From an uncultured Elusimicrobia bacterium (lineage in GTDB: Bacteria > Elusimicrobiota > Elusimicrobia > Elusimicrobiales > UBA9959): 64,000 bases of DNA. The stretch is from positions 22,810-86,809 of the forward strand of contig CAIPTO010000084.1 of NCBI GenBank assembly GCA_903867985.1, in the 5' to 3' direction. Positions 7,622 to 62,984 of this stretch are shown piece by piece (the stretch's first letter is position 1; each line of letters starts with the position of its first letter). The translations under genes and the position numbers were made by a program. The notes below the pieces were generated by a model. The model was not told the DNA's origin. It made no database searches and saw only the letters and a list, made by a program, of their open reading frames with translations.

Positions 7622-7661
7622 ATCCTCTAGTCCTCTAATCCTCTAATCCTCTAATCCTCTA
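7622..7661. repeat. Octamer tandem array (CTAATCCT family), single arm overlapping the deoB stop codon
   Basis: ctagtcct ctaatcct ctaatcct ctaatcct at 7627-7658. Confidence 0.85.
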
Positions 7662-8878
7662 ACAATCTTCCTATATTCCTTCTGCACTCCGAAAAGTTGA
7701 GCCGTCACATGCCCTATATCCGAGAGCCCGGGGCATACGCCGGTTTTAATACCACCCAGTTTCCCGTCATAGCCATTACGCGCTGCAATAAACGGCAGTG
7801 GTTCTTTGGAATGATAGCCATAATCCTCCTTATGCTCCATACCGTGATCGGCGGTGATCATAAAAAGGTCGCCTTTATCCATCCGGCTTTCAAAGAGCGG
7901 AATTATGCGGTCTATTTCCATAATGGCCTTCAGAGCGCCCGGGATATCACGCGTGTGGCCGTAGACGCTGTCCGTGTCCACTAAATTGGTAAATATGAAA
8001 GTTCCTCTGGGACGATAGATGTGTTTTGCTCCGGCCAGGGCGTTTATGGTCCCCTGTATGCAGTACGGGTTGGTGTCTTTTTTCTTAGGGTGGACGAATC
8101 GGAGGCCAAGGGCCGGATCGATGAACATTTCATGATTAAGTTTAATTTTGGCGTGATAAGAGGTGTTCACCAGGTCGCTGGTCTTACCCACAGCCACCGT
8201 CCAGACGTTATTCTCGCGCAAAATATCAACCAGCGTCTTCTGGCCGATCGGCAGCACGGCGTCGTGCCGGTTGGAGGTGCGCACAATATCCCCCCCGGCG
8301 CTCTTTATATAGGCCCGGGCAATAGCGCGGGTTATAGGAAGCCCCATCTCCATGGCCAGCGCGAAGGCGATGTCAGCTATCTTGTGCTGCTCAGCGACGG
8401 GGATCACGGCCTCGTTCATCGCCAGCTGGATGAGCGGATCACATTTGCTGGCGTAGACGATAGGTTTGCCGGTCCGCTCATGTTCCGCCGCGTTGAGCTC
8501 TATCGCCTCCATCCCGGCAGCCATCTTGTTGAAGAACGTCTTGCGGCCAATGCGCTTTTCCAGCTCGACGATGTACTTCTTCGGAAAACCGCTGTTGAAC
8601 AGGTCGTAGGTGCGGTCATCCAGCACACCCATCATCTCGCGATGGCCGACAAGGCTGTCGGCGGTGGCCGAGGCCTGAGTGAGAGCGGCGGCGTAGGATT
8701 TTTTTGAGTGTTTTGGCGCGAAGCGGCTCTTAAACCGCGGTCCGACTATTTCGCCTAAACCCAGACGAGACAGATTCGGGAGATTGACTTTCTTATTGTA
8801 GCTGGCAAGCAGGTGCTCAATGGTAGTAATACCGAGGGCGTCTATGACCAGCAGTAATGCCACAGGTGATTTTTTCAA
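7643..8878 (-). CDS. deoB: Phosphopentomutase (alkaline phosphatase superfamily)
   Basis: LLVIDALG, GHREMMG, RAIARAY, TNLVDTDSVYGHTRD, ITADHG. Likely TTG start at 8878 preceded by GGAGG. Confidence 0.8.
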   Translation of the reverse strand: MKKSPVALLLVIDALGITTIEHLLASYNKKVNLPNLSRLGLGEIVGPRFKSRFAPKHSKKSYAAALTQASATADSLVGHREMMGVLDDRTYDLFNSGFPKKYIVELEKRIGRKTFFNKMAAGMEAIELNAAEHERTGKPIVYASKCDPLIQLAMNEAVIPVAEQHKIADIAFALAMEMGLPITRAIARAYIKSAGGDIVRTSNRHDAVLPIGQKTLVDILRENNVWTVAVGKTSDLVNTSYHAKIKLNHEMFIDPALGLRFVHPKKKDTNPYCIQGTINALAGAKHIYRPRGTFIFTNLVDTDSVYGHTRDIPGALKAIMEIDRIIPLFESRMDKGDLFMITADHGMEHKEDYGYHSKEPLPFIAARNGYDGKLGGIKTGVCPGLSDIGHVTAQLFGVQKEYRKIVRGLED

Positions 8879-8981
8879 GATTCCTCCGGGACGAAGCGCG
8901 CTTCCATACCAATCCCCGCATATTTTAAAATTATAGTATATTGTAAAAGTGGCGCAACTAAAAAACAATGGAGCCTGTCCC

Positions 8982-11900
8982 ATGAAATCCCTGAGCCTTA
9001 TCCTCTTTTTTTACCTCTCCGCGAACCTGAGCGCCGGCGTCGTCAGCCACGATCTCAGGATCAGAATAAATCCCGGCCAAAACAGCCTGGAAGCGGAAGA
9101 TGACATAACCCTGCCGGAATACACGGACGGGATAGTATTCTCTCTTCATAAAGGGCTGGCGCCCTCGGCGCTCACTGCGGGAGCCGAACTAAAAGAAATT
9201 AGTTCCGCTCCGTCCGACGATATCTTCACCAGGTATTCCATCCTCCTGCCGGCCGGTGTGAAAACCTTCAGACTCAAATACAGTGGTGTGATTTATCATC
9301 CGCTGGCGGAACAAGCCGAAAACTACGCCCGCTCTTTCTCCGAAACCCCTGGTCTGATAAGCGCCGACGGCGTATATCTGTCCGGCGCGTCTTTCTGGTA
9401 TCCGGAATTTGACGGGCAGCTCTCTAAATTCAAGATTGAAACGGATCTGCCCCAAAACTACGAATCGATCTCCGGGGGCGACAGAGTTTCCAGGAAGGAA
9501 CATGACGGCCGGACACTGACCACATGGAAAACCGCTTTTCCCCAGGATGAGATAACCCTGGTCTGCGGCAAATATAAGGAATATAAAACTTCCGCCGGCG
9601 GCTTAGACTTCTATGTATTCCTGCAGGAGTCTGACGGGGAGCTGGCTCAAAAATATCTGACCGCCACCAGGCAGTATGTGGACATGTATTCGGGCCTGCT
9701 GGGCCCCTATCCGTACGGAAAATTCGCCCTGGTCGAAAATTTTTGGGAAACCGGCTACGGCATGCCATCCTTCACTCTGCTGGGGCCAAAGGTCATCCGC
9801 CTGCCTTTCATCCTGAACTCGTCCTATCCGCATGAAATATTGCACAACTGGTGGGGCAATGGCGTTTTCGTGGATTATAAGAACGGCAACTGGTGCGAAG
9901 GACTGACCGCCTACCTTGCCGATTACCTCATCAGCGAGGGCCGCGGCAAAGGCCGGGAATACCGCATGACTACCCTGCAAAAATACGCCGATTACGCGCG
10001 CCAGGGAAAGGATTTCCCGCTGCGGGAGTTCCGCTCGCGTGACTCCTCGGCCTCGGAAGCTGTCGGCTACGGGAAGGCGATGATGTTGTACCATATGCTC
10101 AGGATCAGCCTTGGGGACGAGAAGTTTAAAGCGGGCCTGAGGGACTTCTACAAGAACAATAAATTTAAGCTCGCATCCTTTGAGGACCTGAAGATCTCTT
10201 TTGAAAAACAGACCGGCCGTACCAGGCTGGATAATTTTTTCAAACAGTGGGTCGACCGGTCCGGAGCCCCGGAATTATCGCTTAAGGATATCAGGATAAC
10301 GCGTGAATTTGACGATTTCGCCCTGGAGTTCACCATCGCTCAGCTTCAGGACGGCCCGGCGTATCAGCTTGAGGTCCCGGTCGCGATACAGCTTGAAAAT
10401 ATAAGCCAGCCCCGCCTGATGCGCCTGGTCATGAAAAAAAAAGAGGAGATCTTTAAGTATTTTTCAAAAACGCGCCCGACACGGGTGGAGCTGGATCCGG
10501 AATTCGATCTGTTTCGAAGATTGAGTCCGCTTGAAACTCCTCCCACGCTGTCGCGCCTGCTGGGCGCGGATAAGCCGCTAATAGTACTGCCCTCAGCCGC
10601 CTCCGGGGGAATTTTTAAAGCCTATCGGGATTTAGCTGCGGGTTGGAGTAAAGATGCAGGCAATTTGCCGGAGATAAAAAACGACTCGGAGTTATCCGCC
10701 CTGCCCGGAGACCGCCATATATGGATCTTTGGACAGGAAAACAAATTTTATCCGGCTCTCGCCGCCCGCCTGGAAACGCTCGGGGCAGTATTCTCTCCCG
10801 GCCGGGTGCTATTGGATAACCAGGACTTCCCTGTAGCATCCTCAACATTTGTTCTGGCGGATTTAAATTCTGAAAATCCGCTTTATTCCGTCGGGCTGAT
10901 ACTCGCAAGCAGGCCGGAAAAACTACAATTACTTGCCGCCAAGATCCCTCATTACGGAAAATACGGCTACCTGGTATTCGACGGCGAAATGACTTCCCTG
11001 GCGACTGGCGGCTGGCAAGTGAAGAATTCCCCCCTGTCCGCGGTATTGAGCGATGCCTCCGTGCGCCAGACTTATCCCGCGCGCCCGCCGCTGGCCGCTC
11101 CAGCCTCAATCTTCTCCATCAAGCGTATAAAACCGCATATTTCTTACCTGGCCTCCGGCCTTGAAGGACGCGGGCCGGGAGAGCCGGGCCTGGAAAAAGC
11201 TCACAAGTATATCAGCGCGATGTTCCGCCAATACGGTTTGAAGCCGTTTTTTGAAGGCGGATTCACTCAGGAATGGAAGGAGTCAGGACAAACCTTCAGG
11301 AATCTGGCCGGAGTAGTGGAGGGTTCCGGACGCAAGGACGAATATGTGATTATAAGCGCCCATTACGATCATCTGCCTTCCGGGAAGGGCGGTGTCTATC
11401 CCGGCGCCAACGACAACGCCTCCGGCGTGGCGCTCATGCTCGAACTGGCACGGTATTATTCAAAACACCCCCCCGCGCGCTCGATCATTTTCACCGCTTT
11501 TGCCGGCGAGGAGGAGGGCCGGATAGGTTCAAAACATTTCGTACATGCACTGCCCGAAACGACTCTGGCGAAGATTGACGCCGATATAAATTTGGATTCC
11601 GTCGGCCGACTGGACGGCGGCAAAATGATATTTTTAAACTCCGGTTCCTCCGACAAGTGGATCCATATACTGCGGGGCGCCGGCTTTGTAACCGGCACCG
11701 ACTACGAAGCCTCAAAACTCGACCTTGACTCAAGCGACCAGGCCAGTTTCACGGAAGCGGGAGTGCCCGCCATACAGGCGCTCAGCGGCGTGAACGACGA
11801 TTACCACAAAACAACAGACACGGCCGACAAAATAGATTATGACGGCATGGTAAAAGAAGCGGAATTTATGAAAGAAATAACGGACTATCTGGCCGGCGAC

Positions 11901-12916: not shown

Positions 12917-14133
12917 GCCAGCTCCGGGTGGAAATCTCTTTTATAACACCAACCGCCTAAAATGGACGTCACGCCGCCGAAAAACAGGAACATCACCGCC
13001 AGGAAAATGGCGACCCCCAGGCCGCTTACGTCAGAAACCATGCCGAGTATCGTGGGCGAGATGGCGTCGCCAAAGGCGTGAAGTATAAAAATATCAAGGG
13101 CGAAAGCCATGGAGCGCATATTCACGGGGGTGATCTCAACGATAGCCGCGTGGTAAGGGCCGGAATGCATGAAAATAAAGAATTCGGTCATAAACACCAT
13201 TGCAAGCGCCATGGGAAGGCTGTTGGACAGAACTATCATAACGCCGAAGGGCATGCTGAGGAAAAAACTGAGGTACCCCACGATAAAATAAGAGCGTTTG
13301 GTCTTTTTATGCAACCAGTCGGCTATCCATCCGCCGGAGAGACTGCCGGCTATTCCGGCCAGAACAGTGACGGCGCCGAAATATAAACCCGCCCGCGCCA
13401 CAGAGAGGCCGAACTCCCTCACAAAGAACGACGGCATCCAGGCGGCCAGGCCGCCCACCGAAAAAGTACCGATTGCCTGGGTGAAAGCTATCAGCATAAA
13501 GGTTCTGTTTTTGAAAAGGTCTTTATACTGGCTTACCTTGATCCGCTCGGATTTTCTGGCCTTTTTCTCATCCGTTTCTCTGAGGAACATGGTGCTGATA
13601 CCCAAAAGTATGCCGGGCGCCGCGACAATATAAAAAGCGGCGCGCCAGCCGAAACGTTGTCCCAGCACGCCCCCGAGAAGATACCCTATTGCGCTGCCGA
13701 CCGGGATAGCCAGAGCGTAAAGGGCCATAACGCGCGCGCGTTTATCGATCGGGAACCATTCAGCCAGGTACGACGGCGAGACCGTGCCGTAACCGGCTTC
13801 ACCCACGCCCACGGCCGAGCGGGTAAACAGCATCTGGGGATAAGTCTTCGTCAAGCCGGTGAAAATGGTGGCCACACTCCAGAAAATGGCGCTGATACCG
13901 ATTATCGAAGACCGTTTATACTTGTCTCCGAAATAGCCGACCAGTGGCGCGAAGCACATGTAAACGATCATAAAGGAGGAGGCCAGAAAACCCAACTGGG
14001 TGTCGGTCAGAAACAGTTCCTTCTTTATCAACGGAAATACAGCGTAGAGCACCTGCCTGTCTATATAGTTAAAAAGGCTGACACAAAAGATCAGAAGCAG
14101 CACTTTCTTCGCGTAAGGATTATTGGTGAACAT
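12913..14133 (-). CDS. MFS transporter (spinster-like)
   Basis: NYIDRQ, GYFGDKYKR, RSAVGVGEAG and about 12 hydrophobic segments. Start moved to the ATG at 14133. Confidence 0.88.
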   Translation of the reverse strand: MFTNNPYAKKVLLLIFCVSLFNYIDRQVLYAVFPLIKKELFLTDTQLGFLASSFMIVYMCFAPLVGYFGDKYKRSSIIGISAIFWSVATIFTGLTKTYPQMLFTRSAVGVGEAGYGTVSPSYLAEWFPIDKRARVMALYALAIPVGSAIGYLLGGVLGQRFGWRAAFYIVAAPGILLGISTMFLRETDEKKARKSERIKVSQYKDLFKNRTFMLIAFTQAIGTFSVGGLAAWMPSFFVREFGLSVARAGLYFGAVTVLAGIAGSLSGGWIADWLHKKTKRSYFIVGYLSFFLSMPFGVMIVLSNSLPMALAMVFMTEFFIFMHSGPYHAAIVEITPVNMRSMAFALDIFILHAFGDAISPTILGMVSDVSGLGVAIFLAVMFLFFGGVTSILGGWCYKRDFHPELA

Positions 14134-14261
14134 CGCTATTATTCTACCAAATAGGACCGCCGGCCCACAGGAAAAAGGTAAAATTATGCTAATATTATTT
14201 AACAGGTCACGTACAAAACAATATAGCTGCAAAGTCTGCACGCTGCTGAACAGGAGCCACA

Positions 14262-15695
14262 ATGAAAACTCTCGCTGAAAAACCCTCAAAAAATATAGCT
14301 TACGCCCACAAGAACGGCTATGAAATAATTTCCGCGGCTGAAGCCAAATTAATGGAAGCGTTCAACAAACTGTATCTGGATTTTTTAAGTGACAGCAAGA
14401 CCGAGCGTGAAGCGCACGACAAAGGCGTAAACCTGCTGGAAGCTTCCGGCTTTAAAGATCTGGTCAAGTTTGAAAACGGGCGCATAAAACTCGCGCCCGG
14501 AGACCGGGTTTATAAATCCTGCGCGGGCAAGACGCTCATGGCCGTCATCATCGGCAAAAAACCGCTGGAGGCCGGAATGCACATCGTGGGAGCCCATACG
14601 GACGCGCCCCGCATTGATATTAAACAGAACCCGCTTTACGAGAACGGAGATATGGCGCTTTTGGATACGCATTACTACGGCGGCATAAAGAAATATCAAT
14701 GGGTCACGATCCCGCTGGCCCTGCATGGGGTGTTCGTTAAGCCAAACGGGAAGACGATCACGATCACCATCGGCGAAGATCCCTCCGACCCCGTACTCTG
14801 CATTACCGACCTCCTGCCACATCTATCCGCCGACCAGAACAAGAAAACCCTCTCAGAGGGGATAGAGGGCGAGAATCTGGATGTCATCGTTGGGTCTGTG
14901 CCCGTCAGCGAAAAAAGCCGGAAGGAAAAGATAAAACACAATATTCTCCAGTTGCTGCACGACAAATACGGCGTCACCGAAGAGGACTTTCTTTCCGCCG
15001 AACTTGAACTGGTTCCCGCCGGCAGGCCACGGGAAGCCGGCCTGGACCGCTCCATGATACTCGGCTACGGTCAGGACGACCGCGTCTGCGCGTACGCCGG
15101 CCTTAAGGCGCTCGTGGATATAAAAGGTATCCCAGAATACACCGCGTCAGTACTCCTCTGCGACAAGGAGGAGATCGGCTCGGTGGGAGCCACCGGTATG
15201 GCTTCAAACTTTTTTGAGAACACTTCCGCGGAACTGCTGAACCTGACCACGGACAGTTACAACGAACTCACCCTGAAACGCGCCCTCAATAATTCATGGA
15301 TGATTTCAGCCGATGTCAACGCGCTTTTCGACCCGCTTTACGCCTCGGTCTCGGAAAAAAAGAACTCCGCGATCCTCAATCACGGAGTGTGTCTGAGCAA
15401 ATACGGCGGATCCCGCGGCAAGTCCGGTTCTTCTGACGCCAGCGCGGAATTTGTGGCGGAAATAAGGAGAATCTTCGACAAAGCCGGAGTCATCTGGCAA
15501 ACCGGCGAGCTGGGCAAAGTTGACCAGGGCGGCGGCGGCACCATCGCCTGGCTTATGGCGCGCTACGGCATGCATGTAGTGGACTGCGGGGTCGGCCTCT
15601 TATCGATGCACTCCCCCATGGAACTGGCAGGAAAGCTGGATATATTTATGGCGTATAAGGCCTATCTGGCATTCCTTAAGGATGGGAGGAAATAA
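14262..15695 (+). CDS. M18-family aminopeptidase (aspartyl aminopeptidase / ApeA-like)
   Basis: KTEREA, GAHTDAPR, GYGQDDRVC, DKEEIGS, ISADV, LSMHSPME. Confidence 0.9.
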   Translation: MKTLAEKPSKNIAYAHKNGYEIISAAEAKLMEAFNKLYLDFLSDSKTEREAHDKGVNLLEASGFKDLVKFENGRIKLAPGDRVYKSCAGKTLMAVIIGKKPLEAGMHIVGAHTDAPRIDIKQNPLYENGDMALLDTHYYGGIKKYQWVTIPLALHGVFVKPNGKTITITIGEDPSDPVLCITDLLPHLSADQNKKTLSEGIEGENLDVIVGSVPVSEKSRKEKIKHNILQLLHDKYGVTEEDFLSAELELVPAGRPREAGLDRSMILGYGQDDRVCAYAGLKALVDIKGIPEYTASVLLCDKEEIGSVGATGMASNFFENTSAELLNLTTDSYNELTLKRALNNSWMISADVNALFDPLYASVSEKKNSAILNHGVCLSKYGGSRGKSGSSDASAEFVAEIRRIFDKAGVIWQTGELGKVDQGGGGTIAWLMARYGMHVVDCGVGLLSMHSPMELAGKLDIFMAYKAYLAFLKDGRK

Positions 15696-15700
15696 ATCAA

Positions 15701-15785
15701 AGGATTGGAGGATTGGTCAGACTTAGTGAACATCTTCATGCATCGCTAATCCTCTATTCTTCCAGTCCTCTGATCCTCAAATACT
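15701..15785. repeat. Inverted-arm octamer element (AGGATTGG / CTAATCCT family)
   Basis: Left arm aggattgg aggattgg; right arm ctaatcct ctattctt ccagtcct ctgatcct caaatact, ending at the next ATG. Confidence 0.8.
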
Positions 15786-16283
15786 ATGTCTATTAAAATA
15801 ATCGTTACCGGCGGAACCTTCGATAAGGAGTACAACGAATTCAACGGCGAGCTTTTCTTCAGGAGCACCCACCTGCGCGAGATGCTGGCGCTGGGCCGTT
15901 CCCGGGTCGCAGTGAACATAAAGACGCTTCTGATGGTGGACAGCCTGTTTATGACAGTTTCACACCGCAAAAAGATCCTCCGCGAGTGCCTTGCCTCCAA
16001 GGAGCACAGCATTGTCATAACTCACGGCACCGACACCATGCCGGAAACCGCCCGACTGCTTGGCCCGAAAATAACTAACAAAACCGTGGTGCTCACCGGG
16101 GCCATGGTGCCGTACAAGTTCGGCAGCTCGGACGGAATGTTCAATCTGGGCTCAGCTATCTCCTTCTCGCAAACGCTCCCCCCGGGCGTCTACATAGCAA
16201 TGAACGGACGTTATTTCAACTGGTATAATGTAAGGAAAAATAAAACCAAAGGCGAGTTTACTGAGCAGCAGACTTTAAAATAA
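15786..16283 (+). CDS. Short asparaginase-domain protein (N-terminal catalytic domain only)
   Basis: TGGTFDK, VDSL, ITHGTDTM, VVLTGAMVP, GVYIAMNG. Confidence 0.85.
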   Translation: MSIKIIVTGGTFDKEYNEFNGELFFRSTHLREMLALGRSRVAVNIKTLLMVDSLFMTVSHRKKILRECLASKEHSIVITHGTDTMPETARLLGPKITNKTVVLTGAMVPYKFGSSDGMFNLGSAISFSQTLPPGVYIAMNGRYFNWYNVRKNKTKGEFTEQQTLK

Positions 16284-16360
16284 TAGCCATCTTCTATTTG
16301 CCTTTGACCATGCGCAGAGCTTAAAGGGCGCATTGCAGCCGAAGGCGTATAGCGAATGCT
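16284..16360. repeat. Degenerate heptamer element (GCCTATG / CATAGGC family) between convergent genes
   Basis: tttgcct ttgacca tgcgcag resembles tttgcct ttggcca ... tacgcag near 29424; the right part gcgtata gcgaatg resembles gcatata gcctatg. Confidence 0.5.
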
Positions 16361-16370
16361 GACAGTGTTA

Positions 16371-17396
16371 TTAGAACAAACTTTTGTGTTTTTCCCAGGT
16401 AGCCCGGCTGGCAGAGTTAGAGAATGTCTCAACAGCGCCGGTGCCGTCTATCCATACCGCTGACGTGCCCTTTATCCCGCCCAACAACTCAAAAGCCTTT
16501 TTCTTGCCCATCACGGCCAACACCGCCGACGGAATGTATTCCCCGTTCTCTATGGCCGGGAAGTAAACCAGAAGGTTGGAAAAATCCGGTATCGGATATC
16601 CGGTCTTAAGGTCCAAAATATGAGAATAAAGTCTGCCCTCTATCTGCACGAAGTGATCTCTGCCTGATGAGGACATGACTACGCCCTCGTCAAAACGGAA
16701 CCGGCCCAGCGAACGCCCCTCGTGGAACGGGTCCGGCACTTCATAAGACCAGTCTCTCCTGCCATAAGCCAGCATGTAGCCGCCAAGCCTGAGTTCCACC
16801 TGGTATTTATCCGCAGCCAGTTCTTTTAGAACCTTGTAGCCGCGCTCCAGACAATAGCCCCGCAGAAGCCCCCCCATGTTTATTTGGACTGGCTTCGTAA
16901 ACCGGACCATTTTTCGGGCGTAATCTATCTGCACGTAATCGGAACCCATGCCGGACAGCGCTTTGGATATCTCTTCCTTTGAAGGCATTTTCTGGGAGGA
17001 TGCGGCCTCTTTCCAGATCGGCCACAACGGAGCGAATGTCACATCGAATGCGCCCCCCGTCAATTTAAAGTAGTCCATAGACAGGACCAGCAGCTTAAGA
17101 AATTCATCGTCAATCTTAACCCACTCTCCGTAAGCCTTGTTATTGACGTATGTGGTGTATGTAAATGGTTCGCCGAAATTATATTCCTCAGCGATCCGCG
17201 ACCATTCTTTGAAAACGGCGTCGGCGATCTTCTTGCCCCCGGCATCGTCGGAAGTGAACACCTTCACATGCGACGGAACATTCATAATGAACATGTTCCG
17301 GACATACGAGGGCTCCTCCTTCCTTGAACAAGCGGAAAGCGCGAGGAACGCGGCCATCCCGGCCGCCGCCAAATTATATTTTCTAGAAAAACCCAT
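16371..17396 (-). CDS. apbE: FAD:protein FMN transferase (ApbE), lipoprotein
   Basis: Lipobox LSAC; GAFDVTFAPL, INMGGLLRGY, SSSGRDH, YSHILDLKTGYP. Confidence 0.85.
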   Translation of the reverse strand: MGFSRKYNLAAAGMAAFLALSACSRKEEPSYVRNMFIMNVPSHVKVFTSDDAGGKKIADAVFKEWSRIAEEYNFGEPFTYTTYVNNKAYGEWVKIDDEFLKLLVLSMDYFKLTGGAFDVTFAPLWPIWKEAASSQKMPSKEEISKALSGMGSDYVQIDYARKMVRFTKPVQINMGGLLRGYCLERGYKVLKELAADKYQVELRLGGYMLAYGRRDWSYEVPDPFHEGRSLGRFRFDEGVVMSSSGRDHFVQIEGRLYSHILDLKTGYPIPDFSNLLVYFPAIENGEYIPSAVLAVMGKKKAFELLGGIKGTSAVWIDGTGAVETFSNSASRATWEKHKSLF

Positions 17397-17459
17397 TCCA
17401 CCCCCCGGTCAGATGTTTAAACGACTCGGCCGAAGCTTACTGCTTACACCTGAAAAAGA

Positions 17460-18398: not shown

Positions 18399-18479
18399 AT
18401 ATCTATAGATTTGATTTGGTTTATTATACCAATAAAAAACGACCGAATCACCTGGCTCCAATATGCGGCCCTTTCTCTT

Positions 18480-18508
18480 TTGACTTAGCAGATTTGTTTT
18501 TGTATCCT
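18480..18508 (+). promoter_or_regulatory. Sigma70-type promoter of the FlgO/VWA gene
   Basis: TTGACT-17 nt-TATCCT upstream of GAGGGG and the ATG at 18541. Confidence 0.45.
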
Positions 18509-18540
18509 AAATTCATCAAATTCACGCGAGGGGTGCTATT

Positions 18541-20139: not shown

Positions 20140-20153
20140 CGACTCTTCTTTTC

Positions 20154-20189
20154 AAAAAGCCTCCGCGTTTAACTACGCGGAGGCTTTTT
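20154..20189. terminator. Intrinsic terminator, potentially bidirectional
   Basis: AAAAAGCCTCCGCGT-ttaact-ACGCGGAGGCTTTTT. Confidence 0.85.
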
Positions 20190-20192
20190 ATT

Positions 20193-20221
20193 TAGACATC
20201 CCGGACTATGTTTAATAGAAT
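20193..20221 (+). promoter_or_regulatory. Sigma70-type promoter, leaderless spacing to the GH3 start codon
   Basis: TAGACA-17 nt-TAGAAT-6 nt-ATG (20228); no Shine-Dalgarno sequence. Confidence 0.55.
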
Positions 20222-20227
20222 ATAACG

Positions 20228-22456: not shown

Positions 22457-22524
22457 ACCATGGCGGTTGTATTGTTTTTGTAAATTATTTAAACTCTTAT
22501 TATATGATGACGCACCGGGGTTCA

Positions 22525-27070: not shown

Positions 27071-27078
27071 TCAGCCTC

Positions 27079-45705: not shown

Positions 45706-45771
45706 TATTCCTCCAGTTTTGGGTCGTAAAACGTAAAGCGGAAATCGGAAAGAGTCGGGAATGACAATTCC

Positions 45772-52501: not shown

Positions 52502-53749
52502 ATGACTTTTTTAAAGGACATGAAAACCGGGTTGACCAGGAATGTGACTTTTCTGGGCATTGTAAGCGGTCTCACAGATATATCGAGTGAGATGCTCTAC
52601 CCGATAGTGCCTATTTTTCTCACCTCTATACTTGGCGCGCCGATGAGTACAGTGGGGTTTATAGAAGGAGTGGCGGAATCCACCGCCAGCTTCCTAAAGA
52701 TTGCCGGCGGTATGTGGTCGGACAAGGTCGGACGGCGCAAACCATTTGTCGTGGCGGGCTATAGCCTCTCGGCTATCTCAAAACCTGTACTTGCCCTTGC
52801 GTATACCTGGCATTTTGTCCTTTTCTCAAGATTCATAGACCGCGTGGGGAAGGGCCTGCGTACTTCGGCCCGCGACGCGATAATCGCCAACTCCACAGAC
52901 AAGCAACACTGGGGAAAGGCCTTCGGTTTCCACCGGGCTATGGATACGATGGGCGCGGCCCTCGGCCCGCTGGCGGCCCTGCTTATGCTCAATATGATGC
53001 CGCCGGCCGCGCCCGACTACCGCCTCATCTTCATAATCGCTTTTGTTCCCGCCGTACTGGGCGTTTTTGTCCTGATACATTTCGTAAAAGAATCAGCCAA
53101 TAGGGTGGAGGGTTCAGGGTATAGGGTTCAGGGTCAAGGCATTCCGAATAACTCCACCCTAAACCCTAAACCCTCTCCCCTAGCCCCTACCCCTATGTCT
53201 TCCGATTTTAAAACCTTCGTCGGCCTGTACGCAATCTTCGCCCTCGGCAATTCAAGCGATGTCTTCCTAATTATGAAAGCTAAAAGCGTCGGCTTCACCA
53301 CCACCCATGTTATACTGGCTTACACCGGTTACAATCTGGTCTACGCTTTCCTTGCCGCGCCGGCAGGCTGGCTATCAGACAAACTGGGCAGGATCAAAAC
53401 CATGGCTTTCGGCTTCCTGGTCTTCGCCGCCGTTTACCTGGGCTTCGCTACTGCGGATAAGGGATGGATGATCTGGGCACTGTTCGCCCTTTACGGTTTC
53501 TACGGCGCGTTCAACGAGGGTATAGCCAAAGCCGTCATCTCGCATCTTAGCGCGGATGATAATCGCGCCACCGCTATGGGGTATTTTCAGGGCTCTCTGG
53601 GCTTCCTAACCTTCTTCGCCAGTACCATGGCCGGCTTCCTTTGGACCAGATTTTCTCCCGCAGCGCCTTTCCTGATCGGAGCCGGCTGCGCCCTAGTTTC
53701 CACAGCAGCGTTGATAATCTGGAGCAGAAAAAGACAATTAGCATTTTAA
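52502..53749 (+). CDS. MFS transporter carrying an in-frame repeat element in its central loop
   Basis: SGLTDISSEM, GMWSDKVGRRKP, DRVGKGLRTSARDA, GFHRAMDTMGA, GWLSDKLGR. Confidence 0.9.
   Translation: MTFLKDMKTGLTRNVTFLGIVSGLTDISSEMLYPIVPIFLTSILGAPMSTVGFIEGVAESTASFLKIAGGMWSDKVGRRKPFVVAGYSLSAISKPVLALAYTWHFVLFSRFIDRVGKGLRTSARDAIIANSTDKQHWGKAFGFHRAMDTMGAALGPLAALLMLNMMPPAAPDYRLIFIIAFVPAVLGVFVLIHFVKESANRVEGSGYRVQGQGIPNNSTLNPKPSPLAPTPMSSDFKTFVGLYAIFALGNSSDVFLIMKAKSVGFTTTHVILAYTGYNLVYAFLAAPAGWLSDKLGRIKTMAFGFLVFAAVYLGFATADKGWMIWALFALYGFYGAFNEGIAKAVISHLSADDNRATAMGYFQGSLGFLTFFASTMAGFLWTRFSPAAPFLIGAGCALVSTAALIIWSRKRQLAF
53101..53195. repeat. Inverted-arm heptamer element (nAGGGTn / nACCCTn) inside the MFS coding sequence
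   Basis: tagggtg gagggtt cagggta tagggtt cagggtc ... cacccta aacccta aaccctc tccccta gccccta. Confidence 0.88.
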
Positions 53750-53752: not shown

Positions 53753-53773
53753 CACCCTAAACCCTGAACCCTT
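53753..53773. repeat. Single-arm heptamer array (nACCCTn) between the MFS stop and the next start
   Basis: cacccta aaccctg aaccctt. Confidence 0.7.
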
Positions 53774-53777
53774 TCTT

Positions 53778-55081: not shown

Positions 55082-55867
55082 ATGACCGACTTATACTGCG
55101 TTCTTCATAAAGATACCTCGTACTCCCTGGAAAAAACTGCCGATTTCCTAGCCGTAGAGCGGTGTATCGACCGCGCTGACGCGGCCGCCGCTTTTAAAAA
55201 AACTCCCGGCTTTCTGCTGGAAAACGCTGAATTGGGCAAAGCTTCCGCTTTTAATTTCCGGGCCTCGGCTTTCGGTTTTGAAACGTTGTTGCTGTCGCAA
55301 AAGGAACTAAAAAGTCCGCCGCCGGCGTCCGCCCTCTTAAAAATTGAATTCAAGACGGATGGTTTTTATTATTTTTCAAACGCTACAAAGGAACATATTC
55401 CTTTTGAAGCCGTGAAGGCTGTCACCGCCTGCGCCTTTGCCGTAGAAATGCCTCCAAAGGACACGTCTGTAACGGAAGCTGGTCTGCTGGATTCTCTGCG
55501 CGCGCGCTATTTTCCGTTCGCTCTGCCTTTCGGGGAAAAGTATAGTCAGGCGCCCGTCACCCCTCCCCCGCCATCTCCCGTAAGGGAAACCGTATTTCTG
55601 GCGGACATACTTACCGGCGGACCCATACCGCTCCGTTTAACCCTGAACTGCGACGAGCATGATTATTCAAGCCTGGGAGAGAAAAAAACATTATCAAGCT
55701 TCGAAAATTTCCGTTTACTTCTGGGTGAACTGTCATCACGGGCCTTTGGCGCGGCCAGAAATCCCTTTCTGCAGGCGCTCCTCGGCAAGAAGGCGCTCAA
55801 CCAACTTAAATATCCTTCAACCGCCTCATATGAAAAAGAACTGGTATGGATTAACACAGTACGATAG
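55082..55867 (+). CDS. Hypothetical protein
   Basis: 261-aa ORF co-oriented with its neighbours; no motif recognised. The stop codon lies inside a repeat arm. Confidence 0.6.
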   Translation: MTDLYCVLHKDTSYSLEKTADFLAVERCIDRADAAAAFKKTPGFLLENAELGKASAFNFRASAFGFETLLLSQKELKSPPPASALLKIEFKTDGFYYFSNATKEHIPFEAVKAVTACAFAVEMPPKDTSVTEAGLLDSLRARYFPFALPFGEKYSQAPVTPPPPSPVRETVFLADILTGGPIPLRLTLNCDEHDYSSLGEKKTLSSFENFRLLLGELSSRAFGAARNPFLQALLGKKALNQLKYPSTASYEKELVWINTVR

Positions 55868-55954
55868 TACGACAGCAAGACAGGAAGACAGTACGACAGG
55901 GAGCAGTGAACATTACTGCCGCACTATCCCGCTGCCGCACTGCAGCGCGATCCT
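55853..55954. repeat. Inverted-arm octamer element (ACGACAGT family, same as 21829)
   Basis: Left arm acgatagt acgacagc aagacagg aagacagt acgacagg; right arm actgccgc actatccc gctgccgc actgcagc. Confidence 0.82.
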
Positions 55955-55974
55955 GCCCGGTTGCCTCGCTGACT

Positions 55975-55990: not shown

Positions 55991-58474
55991 ATGGAAAAAG
56001 CAGCAAAACCTAAAAAATATCTTACAATTCACGCCCATTTTTATCAGCCTCCCCGCGAGAACCCCTGGACGGGCGACATCCCCCCGCAGAATTCCGCCTT
56101 CCCTTACAACGACTGGAACGAGCGAATAGCCCGCGAGTGTTATATTCCGAACGCCTACGCGCGTATAAACGATTCTATGGGCCGCGCCGTTGAACTGGTC
56201 AACAACTACGAATATCTCAATTTTGATTTCGGCCCCACCCTACTGACGTGGATGGAAAAGCGATATCCGGCTTATTACTCCAAGATCGTCCAAACCGCCG
56301 CAAAGACCAGAGCGAAGAGCGGTCACTCCAATGCCATAGCCCAGGCATATAACCACAGCATACTCCCCTTGGCCTCATTCAATGACCGGCTGACGCAGGT
56401 ACTCTGGGGGCTGGCTGATTTTGAGCGGCGCTTCGGTTTTAAGGCTGAAGCCATGTGGCTGCCGGAAACAGCTGCCGACGAGGGCACACTGCGTCTGCTC
56501 ATCGACCAGGGCCTGCGCTACGCCATATTATCCCCCTACCAGGCCGAAAAGATCCGCCCATTGGATTCGGAAAAGTGGACGGATGTAGAAACCGGGCAGT
56601 TTGATAACCGGCGCCCCTACGCCTGGTTCGACCGCGCGCCCTCCGGAGAAAAAATAAAAAACCGCAGCCTCACTCTTTTCTTTTACGACGGTCCGCTTTC
56701 AAAAGCCGTAGCTTTCGAGGGCGCGTTAAGAAATTCCGAAAGCTTCGCCTCACGCCTGGCCGACAACTTCAAGCCCGGCGCCGAACATGACCAGCTCCTC
56801 AGCATCGCCATAGACGGAGAAACCTTCGGCCACCACCATAAATTTGCCGACCTGACCCTGGCGCACGCTTTCCGCCACGAGATACATAAACACGGCATAG
56901 AAGTGACTAATTTCTCCTCCTACCTGGATTCGCATCCTGCGACTCACGAAGCCGAGATCAAAAAAGGCCCGGACGGCGACGGTACCGCCTGGAGCTGCGC
57001 CCACGGGGTACGCCGCTGGAAAGGTGGCTGCGACTGCGGGCAGGAGGGCGCCGGCCAGACCAACTGGCGCATGCCGCTCAGAGCCGCCCTGAACTGGCTC
57101 AGAGACGCGGCGGACGAAGTTTATACGGCGCAAGCCCAGGACATGTTCAGGGACATATGGCGGACAAGGAACGATTATGTGGCCCTTTTCTCGCTCCCGT
57201 CAAGGGCCGGGGCAGAAGCCTTTATAGCCGCGCATGCTTTAAAAACGCTATCGCACGACGAGAAAACACACGCGCTAAAACTCCTTGAACTTCAGAAGGA
57301 CATTAATTTCATGTTCACCAGCTGCGGCTGGTTTTTCTCCGATATTTCCAGAATAGAGGCGGTGCAAAATCTGAAATACGCCGCCAAAGCCGCTGCGGCC
57401 CTGGATGACCTGGGATTTAAGAACATAGAAAAGGGGTTTGCCGCTATTCTGGAGCTGGCGCCTTCAAACTATGCCAATTGCGAAAATGGGCGCAAAGTGT
57501 ATGAAACTCAGGCCCGGGGACCGCTCCCGGCTATGGAATCGCTGGCGGCCTTCCGGCTGATGGAAAAATTTCTTTTCGGGCTGCCCCTGACCGGGCCCGG
57601 CCATACACACTTCACTGTTTTCAAGGAGGAGACGCACGTAGCAGGCGAACTTGAAACGGTCACGGGCGAATTAATGGAAGAAAACTTCCTCACAATGGAG
57701 AACAGGGCGTTCTCCTTTCTGTACGCCCGTCATGATTCGGAACTGCCGGTAATATGGTTCTCCGCACCGGAAAACCTTGACGAGTTCCGACGCCTGGCCC
57801 ACAGCACCTCTTTTGACACGCTGCGGACGGGCGCCGCGGCATTCAAGGCGACATGTGTTTCGTTTGAAAATTTCCCGCCTGAAGACAAATCCGCTATCAT
57901 CAAGGGTTTCGTGCGTTCGGTCCGACATAAGAACCGGGGACTGCTCTCAAAGATAGTGCACGACTACCTGTATATGTTCGACAAGAATCCCAAGATCGGC
58001 CTTTCGGAATTCAGCGAGATAAAATACGAGGTTGAAATATACGCGGCCGAGGTCTTTGAAATACTTTTTGACGAACTTTCCCTTTCCCGCGACCCCGCGC
58101 TGCTGGAGAAGATCTACGCTCAGTCGGAAAACCTGAAGCGGCATCAACTGGTGATACGCTTCGTGGTACCGCCGCTCAAAGCGGCCGACTGCGTCCTATA
58201 TGCCCTGGAGGAAACGCTTACCTCCCCCTCACCGGAGAATCTGGCGCGGTTGCTGAAATTGCTGCATACCGCGCGCAATCTGGGCCTGAATGACGCTTTT
58301 TTTCACCTGCAGAACGGCCTTTCAGAATTGTTCGCCGGGGCCGCGGCCGCGCCCGCGCAATGGGCCCCCTACGCGCGTCAGATCAGAGATCTCTACGATA
58401 ATTCAGATATCATAATAGATCGGTTTTCGTCCGGACTGGACGAACTTGCCGCTATGGCGGAAGGTAAAATATAA
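55991..58474 (+). CDS. GH57 family protein with a DUF3536 domain
   Basis: IHAHFYQPPRENPW, YNHSILPL, MWLPETA, IDGETFGHHH, AWSCAHGVRRW, MFTSCGWFF. Confidence 0.9.
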   Translation: MEKAAKPKKYLTIHAHFYQPPRENPWTGDIPPQNSAFPYNDWNERIARECYIPNAYARINDSMGRAVELVNNYEYLNFDFGPTLLTWMEKRYPAYYSKIVQTAAKTRAKSGHSNAIAQAYNHSILPLASFNDRLTQVLWGLADFERRFGFKAEAMWLPETAADEGTLRLLIDQGLRYAILSPYQAEKIRPLDSEKWTDVETGQFDNRRPYAWFDRAPSGEKIKNRSLTLFFYDGPLSKAVAFEGALRNSESFASRLADNFKPGAEHDQLLSIAIDGETFGHHHKFADLTLAHAFRHEIHKHGIEVTNFSSYLDSHPATHEAEIKKGPDGDGTAWSCAHGVRRWKGGCDCGQEGAGQTNWRMPLRAALNWLRDAADEVYTAQAQDMFRDIWRTRNDYVALFSLPSRAGAEAFIAAHALKTLSHDEKTHALKLLELQKDINFMFTSCGWFFSDISRIEAVQNLKYAAKAAAALDDLGFKNIEKGFAAILELAPSNYANCENGRKVYETQARGPLPAMESLAAFRLMEKFLFGLPLTGPGHTHFTVFKEETHVAGELETVTGELMEENFLTMENRAFSFLYARHDSELPVIWFSAPENLDEFRRLAHSTSFDTLRTGAAAFKATCVSFENFPPEDKSAIIKGFVRSVRHKNRGLLSKIVHDYLYMFDKNPKIGLSEFSEIKYEVEIYAAEVFEILFDELSLSRDPALLEKIYAQSENLKRHQLVIRFVVPPLKAADCVLYALEETLTSPSPENLARLLKLLHTARNLGLNDAFFHLQNGLSELFAGAAAAPAQWAPYARQIRDLYDNSDIIIDRFSSGLDELAAMAEGKI

Positions 58475-61356: not shown

Positions 61357-62658
61357 TTAGAAGGGCTCAAGTCCATCTTCTTCCGGATCTCTATCCGCGA
61401 AGGCGTCGTTCGGTGTGAAAAAATCAATTACGGGAGCGGTGGAACTGGAATAAAACCAGTCATATTTGGACTGATATTCATTAAGGGCCGCGGTATTGTT
61501 GGTGAAAACCACGTTTTCAAAGGAATTGACGCTGGCATTAGTAGTCCAGTTAAAGGACCCGGTCTCAAGCAGAGCACCGTCCATGATGGCGAACTTGTTA
61601 TGCAGCGCTCCCGTATCGGTCCTGCCGCCGCGCACCCGGAAATCCACCCCGCTTTCAAAAACATATTTGGCGACCGCGGAGGTCTTTGCCATGGTAGAGT
61701 CCATAATCATGCGTACTTTGACGCCGCGATTTTTTGCGGCCACCACCGCGTCGGCCAGAGGCTTAGATGAGAATGTGAAAGTGACCACATCCAACGTGTG
61801 TTTAGCGGCATCTATGATGCCGGAGAGCCTGTTCTCGGTATTCGAGCCCGGAGAAAAAAGATAAGCCGGCACAGGAACATGATTAAGAGCCATAGCCGGG
61901 GCCGGATCCTGGGGAGGCGTGCCGTAATAACCTTCAGGGACTTCAGGAGAAGCGCCCTGCTCAAGAGTGCGGGACCTTGCCCACATCCATTCAAAATAAT
62001 TCACAAAACCGCTCACATGAACATTATCCCTGACTATGAGCATATTCTCGAAATTGTAGAAAGTGGCGCTGAAAGTCCAGTTGTATGAGCCGACCGAGGC
62101 TACGGCCATATCGAACACGCCTATCTTGTTATGGTTGACTCCGTACGACCTGGTGCCCCGCAGCGTGCGAATATCGATACCGCCGGCGTCTATCAGCTCC
62201 TTCAGGCGGATATTCATATTTGGATAAACATGGCTCTCATCCATTATGATCCGTACCTTTACGCCGCGGTCTCTGGCGCGACGAAGGGCGTCGGGCATAT
62301 CCTGAAGTGTAAGACTATACATGACCACATCGATGGATGACCGGGAGGCGTCTATAAGTTTTACCGTAACTTCGTCGAGATGATTGAAAGAATAGTCGGG
62401 GATGGCGGAAAAATCACCTTTGGCCGAAGTCGGCGCATACACCCGGGGTTCCGGCAGAACCGGCGCCGAAACCTTGAATGGAGCAGGATATGGGAAATCA
62501 AAAGATTGCCCGCCTGACAACCCGGCAGATCCTCCTGCAGAGGAGAAAACCTGAGAAATTGCAATGTTTGAGGTACTGTTAGGATTGCTTTCGGAAAAAA
62601 CGCCAAGGGGCTGAATGAACAATAAAATGCCGGCCAGTTTTAAAGAGAGATTATTCAT
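61357..62658 (-). CDS. Secreted phospholipase D-like nuclease/lipase with two HKD-type domains
   Basis: NHNKIGVFD...GSYNWT and LHNKFAIMD...GSFNWT. Confidence 0.88.
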   Translation of the reverse strand: MNNLSLKLAGILLFIQPLGVFSESNPNSTSNIAISQVFSSAGGSAGLSGGQSFDFPYPAPFKVSAPVLPEPRVYAPTSAKGDFSAIPDYSFNHLDEVTVKLIDASRSSIDVVMYSLTLQDMPDALRRARDRGVKVRIIMDESHVYPNMNIRLKELIDAGGIDIRTLRGTRSYGVNHNKIGVFDMAVASVGSYNWTFSATFYNFENMLIVRDNVHVSGFVNYFEWMWARSRTLEQGASPEVPEGYYGTPPQDPAPAMALNHVPVPAYLFSPGSNTENRLSGIIDAAKHTLDVVTFTFSSKPLADAVVAAKNRGVKVRMIMDSTMAKTSAVAKYVFESGVDFRVRGGRTDTGALHNKFAIMDGALLETGSFNWTTNASVNSFENVVFTNNTAALNEYQSKYDWFYSSSTAPVIDFFTPNDAFADRDPEEDGLEPF

Positions 62659-62740
62659 GTGAACATATTATATATGAAGGAGCCTGTTCTTTAAAGGGCC
62701 CTAAGGCCCAGGCCCGGATGAAACGAAGGGCCTACCCATA

Positions 62741-62984
62741 AGATGCAAAGCAATCCAGTAATTTAGACGCAAAGCAGTCCAGAGGCAAAGCTGTTTAGCG
62801 ATTTATATGCAAGGCAATCTAGCAATTTAGAGGAAAAGTAGTTTGGATGTCAAGCAGTTTAGCTAAACAGCTGAATCGCTGTGCTTCTAAGTCGCTAGCT
62901 AGCCTTACTTCTAAACTGCTTTGCATCTAGATGGCTTTACGTCCAGACTGCCTTGCATCTAGACTGCTTTGCCTCTAGACTGCT
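62741..62984. repeat. Large inverted-arm element of 16-nt units (two alternating octamers), about 245 bp
   Basis: Five AGA(T/G)GCAAAGCAGT(C/T)(C/T)-like units plus AGCAATTT-like octamers in strict 8-nt phase (62741-62876), then inverted AGACTGCTTTGCATCT-like units (62897-62984). Confidence 0.9.

Follow-up and report, generated by a model that had tools for sequence, protein, structure and literature searches.

Several ribosomal and intergenic repeat systems of bacteria come close to the elements analysed here. Intervening sequences (IVS) of 23S rRNA that bear an open reading frame are known from Coxiella burnetii (the S23p IVS), Leptospira, Xanthomonas and Brucella (Warrier et al. 2016, PMC4990558). 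In Coxiella a gene of the PF05635 family lies in the stem, which contains tandem GACAGAT heptamers in a number that varies between strains and is cut by RNase III (PMC4990558). ORF-less and decayed versions of rRNA IVS occur as well, their distribution is sporadic, and mobility is suspected without a known mechanism (PMC4990558). A second group, the intergenic heptamer repeats GGGAATC of Xanthomonas and GGGGAYT (STRR) of Nostoc/Anabaena, is treated by Rehm et al. (2015, PMC4692102); the passages of that paper found by term search describe 70-75 array pairs facing each other as inverted repeats in Xanthomonas and essentially one G-rich family per genome, read as quadruplex-forming DNA, and these passages mention no link to a gene.

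The elements described here were found in a stretch of 64,000 nucleotides (the window) of a 2.6-Mb Elusimicrobiota metagenome-assembled genome from lake or groundwater. They share with the rRNA IVS a long terminal inverted-repeat stem, which in the cassettes described below likewise encloses a PF05635 gene, and, as in Coxiella, tandem heptamers of varying copy number within that stem; the inverted arms of the window elements form long stems (-31 to -97 kcal/mol, z to -7.8). They differ from IVS, which occupy rRNA helices 25 or 45, in lying between, and once inside, protein-coding genes (no element was located in 23S rRNA helix 25 or 45, all being at or within protein-coding genes), and in comprising at least seven unit families in one genome, with about 150 copies that lack a gene. 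The likeness to STRR, as far as the passages found describe them, is that tandem heptamers are mostly intergenic, lie nearer to the gene on their 5' side than to the downstream gene and vary in length between close species; here, too, intergenic tandem heptamers often form convergent pairs. The difference is that many unrelated and mostly non-G-rich families coexist here, with periods of 7, 8, 10 and 16, and that a gene-bearing cassette form exists. We consider it probable that the elements belong, as ORF-less members, to a single class of palindromic insertion element, in which many lineages coexist, each with a unit sequence of its own.

Tandem-unit elements of the window and the genome

Twelve elements were placed in the window, as follows (no strand is assigned except where given; MFE is the RNA fold energy in kcal/mol and z its score against shuffled sequence).

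7622-7661: one-armed array of five units (ATCCTCTA x5), of the 3'-arm type of the AGGATTAG/CTAATCCT octamer family; TAGAGGAT on the minus strand
15701-15777: AGGATTAG-family hairpin filling the spacer between an M18 aminopeptidase gene and a short asparaginase-like gene; 5' arm 15701-15716 (AGGATTGG x2), loop 15717-15745, 3' arm 15746-15777 (four units); MFE -31.1, z -6.0
16284-16364: decayed GCCATAG-family hairpin between convergent genes; weak fold, z -0.7
21837-21940: hairpin of the nnGnCAGn octamer family (ACGACAGT/GCGGCAGC) between a GH3 gene and a signal peptidase gene; 5' arm 21837-21876, 3' arm 21909-21940, small inner hairpin within the loop; MFE -60.7, z -6.1
29418-29516: GCCATAG-family hairpin; GCAGA closes the 5' arm at 29452, 3' arm 29482-29516; MFE -34.6, z -2.0
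33151-33210: doubtful and irregular, five octamer units of the form CAGnnnnn and after them a partial match in inverted orientation; z -2.0
45728-45762: one-armed CGTAAAG-family array of five units with a minus-strand gene on each side
49762-49876: GCCATAG-family hairpin between divergent genes; 5' arm 49762-49796 ending GGCAGAG, loop of ~45 nt, 3' arm 49842-49876 beginning ATCTGCC; MFE -45.5, z -3.1
53102-53195, plus strand: AGGGTnn-family hairpin inside the MFS transporter gene 52502-53749; MFE -43.4, z -5.5
53754-53774: one-armed ACCCTAA array of three units directly 3' of the MFS gene stop
55857-55970: nnGnCAGn octamer-family hairpin whose arms differ in length (5' arm 55857-55904, 3' arm 55915-55970); fold unexceptional, z -1.0
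62743-62988: ~245-nt palindrome of 16-nt units (GCAAAGCA + rTyTAGAn) between a PLD-like gene and an ABC ATPase gene; MFE -97.1, z -7.8

An earlier note, made from the sequence of the window, had listed eleven of these sites as tandem-unit hairpins, and the array at 45728-45762 is an addition to that list. Seven of the eleven are clear hairpins and two are one-armed, while the site at 16284 is decayed and that at 33150 doubtful; the unit families given there proved correct when all eleven sites were re-read. The irregular element at 33151-33210 could be assigned to no family found elsewhere. Local folds are absent (MFE 0) from the one-armed arrays at 7622-7661 and 53754-53774, and for the latter, pairing with the 5' arm that begins at 53102, ~620 nt away, is conceivable. 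No known RNA family (Rfam) matched within the window.

Chance does not account for these arrays. A strict detector reports 13 arrays of period 7, 8, 14 or 16 in the window, four of them with an inverted partner, against means of 2.5 arrays and 0.05 paired arrays in 20 shuffles. Over the whole genome, where about 290 tandem-unit arms fall into at least seven sequence-defined families, seven family patterns yield 25-55 arms each and 0-2 in the shuffled genome, so that composition-matched sequence almost never produces such arrays. The claim that variation is limited to certain positions of the unit is also borne out: in CGTAAAG and GCCATAG, positions 1, 2, 5 and 6 are conserved to at least 89% and positions 3, 4 and 7 to 42-78%, figures that are somewhat biased by the seed pattern. 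An assembly artefact is excluded, as contigs from independent metagenome runs contain the same elements unchanged; DNA contigs from five runs show almost no variation within the population except one unit insertion (an extra TATGGCT after 29496 in the run X3 contigs). Composite modules that flank whole genes were observed in inverted orientation, and a recombination-inversion model for these modules was rejected because it predicts direct orientation.

Placement at gene ends

The elements are nearly confined to gene boundaries. Among 57 placed hairpins, 46 lie at same-direction junctions, two at convergent and five at divergent ones, and four inside ORFs; convergent junctions are depleted (2 of 53 against a background of 14%, p 0.016). 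Elements start a few bases past the upstream stop codon or span it, the median distance between the upstream stop and the arm being 4 nt and that between the arm and the next start 17 nt, and arm units encode the tails and stop codons of upstream genes; the stop codon (7643-7645) of the metalloenzyme-family gene 7643-8983, for example, is one TAG of the 7622-7661 array. All three reading frames are closed in 25 of 79 5' arms and 7 of 70 3' arms, compared with 3.6% of random 35-mers. A stop-rich 5' arm would make insertion in or beside the 3' end of a gene tolerable in either orientation, and we infer that landing there is possible in both because the element itself supplies a prompt stop.

The hairpins are unlike intrinsic terminators in that they have no T-run and are scarce at convergent junctions, and an intrinsic terminator scan over 14000-33999 called none of the elements. 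A depletion of Shine-Dalgarno sequences 3' of the hairpins was considered and rejected: GGAG, GAGG or AGGA stands upstream in 34% of genes that follow a hairpin, compared with 27% when all first starts of long ORFs are taken and 11% in random 17-mers. When transcribed, the arms would form a long imperfect double-stranded stem. RNase III cleavage has been shown for rRNA IVS; by analogy with these homologous intervening sequences, the enzyme, whose gene is present in this genome, would probably process the stem here as well, and such processing may uncouple or tune the flanking cistrons.

The element at 53102-53195 is in frame and free of stops, and encodes the central loop residues NRVEGSGYRVQGQGIPNNSTLNPKPSPLAPTP of the MFS transporter. 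Among orthologues this loop holds the same element in L001, a version in L006 with both arms co-varied to near-perfect pairing, one arm in L002, another family in L004 and nothing in eight others. This copy resembles Rickettsia palindromic elements, in which a palindromic repeat is translated in frame as an extra protein loop. Families of those elements have a fixed sequence of about 100-150 nt and neither tandem units nor a cassette form, and in-frame copies are exceptional here (the four among the 57 placed hairpins).

Cassettes, empty hairpins and their distribution

Inverted tandem-unit arms also enclose genes. Two four-helix-bundle genes (PF05635/TIGR02436) are present in this genome, one flanked by CGTAAAG arms (C48) and one by GCCATAA arms (C82); their TIGR02436 scores are 111-121 bits, and XCC0516 (PDB 2GSC) is the closest solved structure. 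Such arms surround nearly all of the 57 PF05635 genes retrieved from 60 genomes of the bacterial family, so the link between arms and TIGR02436-like genes that the earlier note had drawn from other bacteria applies here also. The second cargo it had suggested, GxxExxY (TIGR04256), did not hold up, the best match reaching 23.3 bits against a cut-off of 35 and lying inside a 278-aa frame. Sister proteins have arm families in common (GAGTCT, CAAGTC, AGTGR, GCCATAG, TAGACGGC and AGCGTAT), and the arms agree where closely related proteins are encoded at different loci. Complete cassettes and empty hairpins draw on the same unit families: the 16-mer of the window forms the arms of cassettes L147 and L149 (genomes G037 and G044) and, judged by eye, the arms of L155 look like the AGGATTAG octamer of the window and those of L146 like the nnGnCAGn octamer.

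A PF05635/TIGR02436 ORF is absent from the loops of all twelve window elements and present in the cassettes elsewhere, and the window copies are therefore best described as ORF-less relatives of IVS-type cassettes. No significant remnant of the gene was found in the loops of the window hairpins (best E 0.09); with the junction elements of relatives included, the best E values were 0.09-0.15 in a tiny database, in which the positive control, a loop in G016, gave 7.5e-6. That control comes from the junction orthologous to C82, where the idea of empty copies is confirmed by an ORF-less hairpin plainly recognisable as a decayed cassette. The cassette at this junction is complete in G000; G016 has the same arms around a gene remnant (ATT in place of the start ATG, the final 17 codons retained, blastx E 7.5e-6); two units are left in G001 and none in G003, and G037 and G044 contain a different cassette. 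Internal deletion of the gene can thus turn a cassette into an empty hairpin, which continued deletion reduces to a one-armed array or to a couple of units.

Old hairpins standing unchanged at orthologous junctions were not seen; these junctions hold other unit families, other unit counts or nothing. Neither of the two outcomes that the earlier note had named as refuting its reading, such fixed hairpins or an equal yield from shuffled sequence, thus occurred. At the M18 peptidase/asparaginase-like junction, 11 genomes comprise six with a tandem-unit element of a different kind, two with plain hairpins and three with 6-15 nt. The 16284 site has only a one-unit mini-hairpin in the sister genome G002 and a different (AAGGCTT) family in G001. 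Elsewhere whole units have been gained and lost in arms between sister genomes: 21837-21940 is kept in G002 with a left arm 24 nt shorter and a right arm ~22 nt longer, and in L001 the 49762-49876 element is conserved with a right arm ~9 nt longer, 53754-53774 is ~8 nt longer, and 55857-55970 has gained 24 nt in the left arm and lost 24 nt in the right. Loop inversion as a cause of this +24/-24 pattern is excluded at 21829, the orientation of the loop being kept in G002. The repeated occupancy of the same junctions could mirror sites that tolerate inserts rather than targeting.

Families differ sharply in their spread among genomes. GAGTCT arms give 93 matches in G037, 48 in G016 and none in the congener G044; the 16-mer arms give 39 in G000, 74 in G002 and 0-2 in the remaining five congeners. 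Five genomes, belonging to four genera, have more than 130 matches each to CAAGTC arms, and four of them also have a cassette with arms of this family (Fisher p 5e-5, without correction for phylogeny). Two genomes with eight four-helix-bundle genes each have 10-11 paired matches per 100 kb. In 67-100 kb samples of five genomes that lack the gene there were 1-3 paired matches each, consisting of GC-rich or irregular repeats, and no unit-armed hairpins like those of the window. The suggestion of several MITE-like families is consistent with these lineage-specific bursts and this patchy distribution.

If the elements are ORF-less members of one insertion-element class, they would spread through a factor acting in trans; among candidates for it, only the four-helix-bundle protein travels with the arms, but neither movement of the elements nor an enzyme, a terminal signature or a target duplication was seen. 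Protein identity was not significantly correlated with arm similarity (6-mer sharing) over 1,114 cassette pairs that are not orthologous: the Spearman coefficient is 0.03, a value reached by 471 of 2000 permutations; arm sharing is confined to close pairs (0.155 against a background of 0.062), which plain co-inheritance would explain equally well. This genome has at least seven arm families and two four-helix-bundle genes, and no cassette with 16-mer arms was found in G000 and G002, where the 16-mer family is expanded, so that a resident cognate gene is either not needed for abundance or has been lost.

Competing explanations and significance

The elements might instead have grown in place, intergenic hairpins such as terminators or mRNA stabilisers being expanded by slippage and selected for RNA or DNA structure, with four-helix-bundle genes landing in their loops and no movement of the hairpins. 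The gain and loss of whole units described above, the one-unit mini-hairpin of G002, which could be a seed, the co-varied arms of L006 and the drift of units between orthologous cassettes, where the period itself is not constant (L116 has a 10-mer and L128 an 8-mer), all fit such growth. We nevertheless regard it as unlikely, since identical units, in one case together with a conserved 22-nt linker, occur at dozens of unrelated loci, and since units stay almost constant across genera while congeners lack them. The arms shared by close protein relatives at different loci, the lack of the class in the sampled genomes without the gene, the missing T-runs and the low number of hairpins at convergent junctions also speak against it.

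Movement by a conventional DNA transposase encoded elsewhere, for example a REP-associated tyrosine (Y1/HUH) enzyme acting on DNA hairpins, with the four-helix-bundle gene as a passenger on non-autonomous MITE- or REP-type elements, appears quite improbable. Two Y1_Tnp proteins are encoded in the genome, enzymes of that family, as known from IS200/IS605 and RAYT, naturally act on hairpin DNA, and the elements are MITE-like in being small, non-coding, inverted-repeat sequences of multiple families with bursts in particular lineages. They also resemble REP/BIME, which are short intergenic palindromes in sequence-defined families; there, inverted copies of a family's repeat enclose its protein gene, and gene-less copies far exceed the gene. 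However, the protein bracketed here is a four-helix bundle without a known catalytic motif and not an HUH enzyme, and the arms are tandem arrays rather than one fixed palindrome. The two RAYT-like Y1 genes of this genome have separate REPs of their own, each being flanked by a different palindrome (AAAAAGGTAGCGTCTACCTTTTT at C96, a GTGACACACAACTTAATT-type repeat at C71) and not by tandem-unit arms. Unlike MITEs, the elements have no transposase-bearing parent, the only parent-like form carrying the four-helix-bundle gene, and comparison of filled and empty junctions, whose boundaries are not clean, revealed neither target-site duplications nor a fixed terminal signature. At least seven unrelated arm sequences would, moreover, demand as many specificities. 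None of the 20 window ORFs scanned against Pfam was a transposase.

Reiterative writing of the arms by a template-copying enzyme (slippage synthesis by a reverse transcriptase or a telomerase-like activity) with an Avd-like four-helix-bundle accessory, as in diversity-generating retroelements, would suit arms built of short degenerate units in runs; the proteins are distant Avd relatives (NF033474, 26-32 bits against a cut-off of 80), and the genome has one reverse transcriptase gene. A process that writes units was among the earlier suggestions. This explanation is nevertheless very improbable, given that the sole reverse transcriptase gene is on another contig and adjoins no cassette, that the families are stable sequence lineages common to several genera, and that the observed changes, of single or triple whole units, fit replication slippage.

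A broader form of the insertion-element reading can be offered tentatively. It is conceivable, if speculative, that PF05635 proteins and tandem-unit hairpins are a two-part system comparable to REP and its transposase, with a non-HUH, Avd-like binder, in which each protein clade recognises its own unit "word" and maintains or spreads hairpins at transcribed gene junctions and in rRNA helices; the 23S IVS, the cyanobacterial STRR and the Xanthomonas heptamer pairs might then be faces of one system that crosses phyla.

Such a connection would join bacterial heptamer repeats to the old puzzle of the nature and origin of 23S rRNA intervening sequences, and would also bear on why short tandem heptamer repeats fill some bacteria. 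The natural series is unusually clean: many arm families occur together, the same junctions range from full cassettes through decayed ones, empty hairpins and half elements to empty sites, and whole families differ between close relatives. With this series, binding of the protein to its own arms, cutting by RNase III and movement become testable questions. In practical terms, metagenome contigs break at these elements, gene ends are lengthened or cut short by them and proteins can acquire extra loops, and annotation pipelines should account for them.

Unit-armed elements in the window and genome

The source assembly comprises 2.6 Mb in 147 contigs, the window being part of contig C84. Groundwater and other environments have yielded its close relatives, which are Elusimicrobiota MAGs; lake-water and freshwater metagenome runs contain the window sequence. 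For the eleven sites listed as elements in the earlier note, the sequence was read, the fold computed and the arms divided into units. The listing holds for six strong hairpins, in which runs of one degenerate unit oppose each other (-31 to -97 kcal/mol; folding z -2.0 to -7.8), and for one further two-armed element; the other four are one-armed, decayed or doubtful. The elements, named by start coordinate, are:

7622: single array, no partner close by
15701: strong hairpin
16284: decayed copy
21837: strong hairpin
29418: strong hairpin
33150: doubtful copy
45728-45762: one-armed CGTAAAG array, a twelfth element absent from the earlier list
49762: strong hairpin
53102-53195: strong hairpin of AGGGTnn units, part of the reading frame for the central loop of an MFS transporter and stop-free in that frame
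53754: single array, no partner close by
55857: two arms with unequal unit numbers (z -1.0)
62743: strong hairpin

Splitting the arms into units gave the same families as the earlier note had assigned. A strict detector, requiring a TRF array and an inverted run of its consensus no more than 200 nt away, found 13 arrays of period 7, 8, 14 or 16 in the window, four of them paired, against averages of 2.5 arrays and 0.05 paired in 20 shuffled windows. Genome-wide, seven family patterns matched 55, 31, 25, 47, 51, 37 and 47 arms (∼290 arms and some 1,200 units in total), compared with 0–2 arms for the same patterns in a shuffled genome. Unit variation is position-specific, as previously claimed: in CGTAAAG and GCCATAG, conservation is at least 89% at positions 1, 2, 5 and 6 and 42–78% at positions 3, 4 and 7, figures that carry some bias from the seed pattern.

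A composite module, in which a CGTAAAG array is joined to a CTATGGC array by a conserved 22-nt linker (CAGCAAGCGATTTCTATTCTGCC), occurs at ten or more loci of the genome. Single copies lie on contigs C74, C32, C105, C48 and C82 and at C84:91690-91760, and cannot self-fold because their two arrays belong to different families. Twice, two inverted copies flank ordinary genes, encoding a 630-aa membrane protein in one case and proteins of 285 and 224 aa in the other (pairs at C52:11186-11300 with 13203-13302 and C47:30567-30651 with 32265-32349); a long-range stem of 100 bp would have the bracketed genes in its loop. Elsewhere in the window, the minus strand of 28337-32126 carries two adjoining genes, one matching UPF0164 (PF03687) and the other encoding an 867-aa protein with C-terminal FlgD_ig / CHU_C type IX-secretion-like sorting domains.

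Four-helix-bundle genes between the same arms

The genome holds two PF05635 genes, on contigs C48 and C82, both members of TIGR02436 (111–121 bits); their proteins are only distant relatives of DGR Avd, and among solved structures the nearest is that of the pentameric XCC0516. The C48 gene is preceded by CGTAAAA CGGAAAG CGTAAAG... and followed by ...CTTTACG CTTTCCG, the CGTAAAG family of window element 45728, while the C82 gene has GCCATAA GCCATAG GCTTTAG...GGCAGA on one side and TCTGCG TATGGC...TAAAGCC on the other, the GCCATAG family of elements 16284, 29418 and 49762. Both genes therefore sit between arms of window families, which bears out the link to four-helix-bundle genes that the earlier note had suggested; the GxxExxY gene named alongside was not found in a search of the genome.

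Flanks were fetched for 57 strong PF05635 matches in 60 genomes of the same bacterial family, and in nearly all of them units upstream are matched by the same units inverted downstream. In the protein tree, sister proteins have identical or recognisably related units, even in some pairs whose members lie at different loci; shared units are GAGTCTnn, CAAGTCn, AGTGrnn, GCCATAG, TAGACGGC, AGCGTAT and GTAACnn. The 16-mer of the window is the arm of cassettes in two relatives (loci L147 and L149, genomes G037 and G044), and by eye the window octamers AGGATTAG and nnGnCAGn resemble the arms of cassettes L155 and L146, respectively. Tested globally across cassettes, protein identity and arm similarity were not significantly related. 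Arm sharing is seen only above ∼60% protein identity (0.155 versus a background of 0.062), so that the pace of arm divergence is about that of the proteins; sharing among close proteins can be explained by plain co-inheritance.

The C82 site, flanked by genes for a dehydratase-like protein and a metallo-beta-lactamase-fold protein, was compared across genomes. The window's own genome has the full cassette. In G016, which belongs to another genus, arms of GCCATAA type enclose a 110-nt loop that keeps the cassette leader, a start codon now reading ATT and the last 17 codons of the gene (remnant LVWDIGVKLWFFYEVVK against LTQDVGVKLWAFYKVVK, blastx E 7.5e-6). In G001 the right flank is fused to the only two units left (GCCATAG GCCATAA), and G003 has 22 nt with no units. 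This series, from full cassette through remnant and two-unit stub to empty site, indicates that deletions in cassettes have given rise to at least some of the ORF-less hairpins, the arrays with one arm and the stubs of two units. The junction can also receive another cassette or other kinds of insert: G037 and G044 carry another cassette, whose arms are of the 16-mer and whose protein is 35% identical, and G004 an unrelated ATPase gene of ∼435 aa (L220, G004:C4:61250-62950). The gene-bearing and gene-less forms constitute one element class, the former decaying into the latter.

Turnover and family expansion across relatives

The comparison of orthologous junctions called for in the earlier note did not reveal identical old hairpins; at 15701, 16284 and 21837, relatives differ in family or unit count or have near-empty spacers. 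The 15701 junction, between M18 peptidase and asparaginase-like genes, was compared in eleven genomes. It carries AGGATTGG arms in the window's own genome, AGTGGTT arms flanking a 200-nt structured insert in G002, arms of CGGCTAG type in G003, CGTAAAG/CGGATAG in G016, AGTGATT in G010 and CGTAAGT in G006, plain hairpins in G004 and G005, and only 6–15 nt in G001, G009 and G017. The 16284 site has a one-unit mini-hairpin in G002 and another family in G001.

Unit slippage accompanies this turnover of occupancy. The 21837 element is the same in G002, with the left arm shorter by 24 nt and the right longer by about 22 nt; relative to L001, a close relative at ∼88% nucleotide identity, 55857 is shorter by 24 nt on the left and longer by 24 nt on the right, and 53754 and 49762 are shorter by 8 and 9 nt, respectively. 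One population sample has an additional TATGGCT unit at 29496. L001 lacks the 652-aa gene of window 50445-52403 and has at that position 109 nt (2888-2996) containing an inverted repeat of 11 bp (CAATCCTGCAG...CTGCAGGATTG).

Family expansions are lineage-specific. GAGTCT arms have 93 matches in G037, 48 in G016 and none in the congener G044; 16-mer arms have 39 in the window's genome, 74 in G002 and 0–2 in five congeners, and 16–17 in G037 and G044 with a nearly identical unit sequence. Five genomes, belonging to four genera, have more than 130 matches to CAAGTC arms, and a cassette with CAAGTC arms is present in four of these five genomes (Fisher p 5e-5 for abundance against cognate cassette, uncorrected for phylogeny). 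Two genomes with eight PF05635 genes each gave 10–11 paired matches per 100 kb. Five genomes without a PF05635 gene gave 1–3 each in samples of 67–100 kb, these being GC-rich or irregular repeats, with no unit-armed hairpins like those of the window.

Placement, translated arms and candidate factors

Of 57 strictly detected, placeable hairpins, same-direction genes flank 46, convergent genes 2 and divergent genes 5, and the other 4 are within ORFs, compared with background junctions of 74% same-direction, 14% convergent and 12% divergent (binomial p ∼0.02 each). They nearly fill the spacer (median 4 nt from upstream stop to first arm and 17 nt from last arm to next start). A T-run is absent, and a terminator scan of window 14000-33999 called none of the elements there. 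Stop codons close every one of the three frames in 25 of 79 5' arms and 7 of 70 3' arms, versus 3.6% of random 35-mers, and half of the 3' arms have no stop codon at all. Since the hairpin reads the same on both strands, the stop-rich arm is met first whichever strand is translated.

In every occupied genome at the C82 junction, arm units encode the C-terminal residues and stop codon of the upstream gene, and in the window gene 7643-8983 stops on a TAG within the 7622 array. The 53102 element in the MFS transporter is an exception to this stop-rich placement. Among orthologues, L001 has the same element, L002 one arm, L004 an AGTGGTT-type arm and L006 two arms co-varied to near-perfect pairing (-60.8 kcal/mol); eight others have nothing inserted. 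A one-armed array of about seven CTAATCCT-family units within the dehydratase-like coding region upstream of the C82 cassette (∼56190-56240) would be a second translated array.

With its stops, the leading arm would allow an element to insert at the 3' end of a gene without harm, whichever way round it lands. By analogy with the Coxiella rRNA intervening sequence, an element transcript may form a long imperfect duplex cut by RNase III, a gene for which is present in the genome. Spread would require a factor acting in trans, for which the four-helix-bundle protein, the only gene travelling with the arms, is a candidate. The genome has seven arm families and two PF05635 genes, and the lineage in which the 16-mer expanded yielded no cognate gene. 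The genome also has two Y1 (HUH) transposase genes (IS200/IS605-type, RAYT-like; C96:1390-2310 and C71:2900-3800). Each is bracketed by unrelated REP-like palindromes of its own, AAAAAGGTAGCGTCTACCTTTTT in four copies for the first and a repeat of GTGACACACAACTTAATT type for the second, so that a conventional REP system exists here separately from the unit-armed elements. The one reverse transcriptase gene lies on a different contig (L203, C46:166-1158; 330 aa, RVT_1 79 bits) and is followed by a 226-aa ORF.

In Xanthomonas, inverted pairs of one G-rich heptamer are interpreted as quadruplex DNA (PMC4692102). The Coxiella intervening sequence, a homologous rRNA element cut by RNase III, resembles the elements described here in having tandem heptamers, variable among strains, in its stem (PMC4990558). 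A full-text literature search returned no paper tying the PF05635 family to dispersed repeat-armed hairpins. The contributions of the window are the coexistence of several arm families, a clear succession of decay stages at a single junction, the presence or absence of whole families within a genus, the contrast with genomes that have no such gene, and the stop-codon polarity of the arms.
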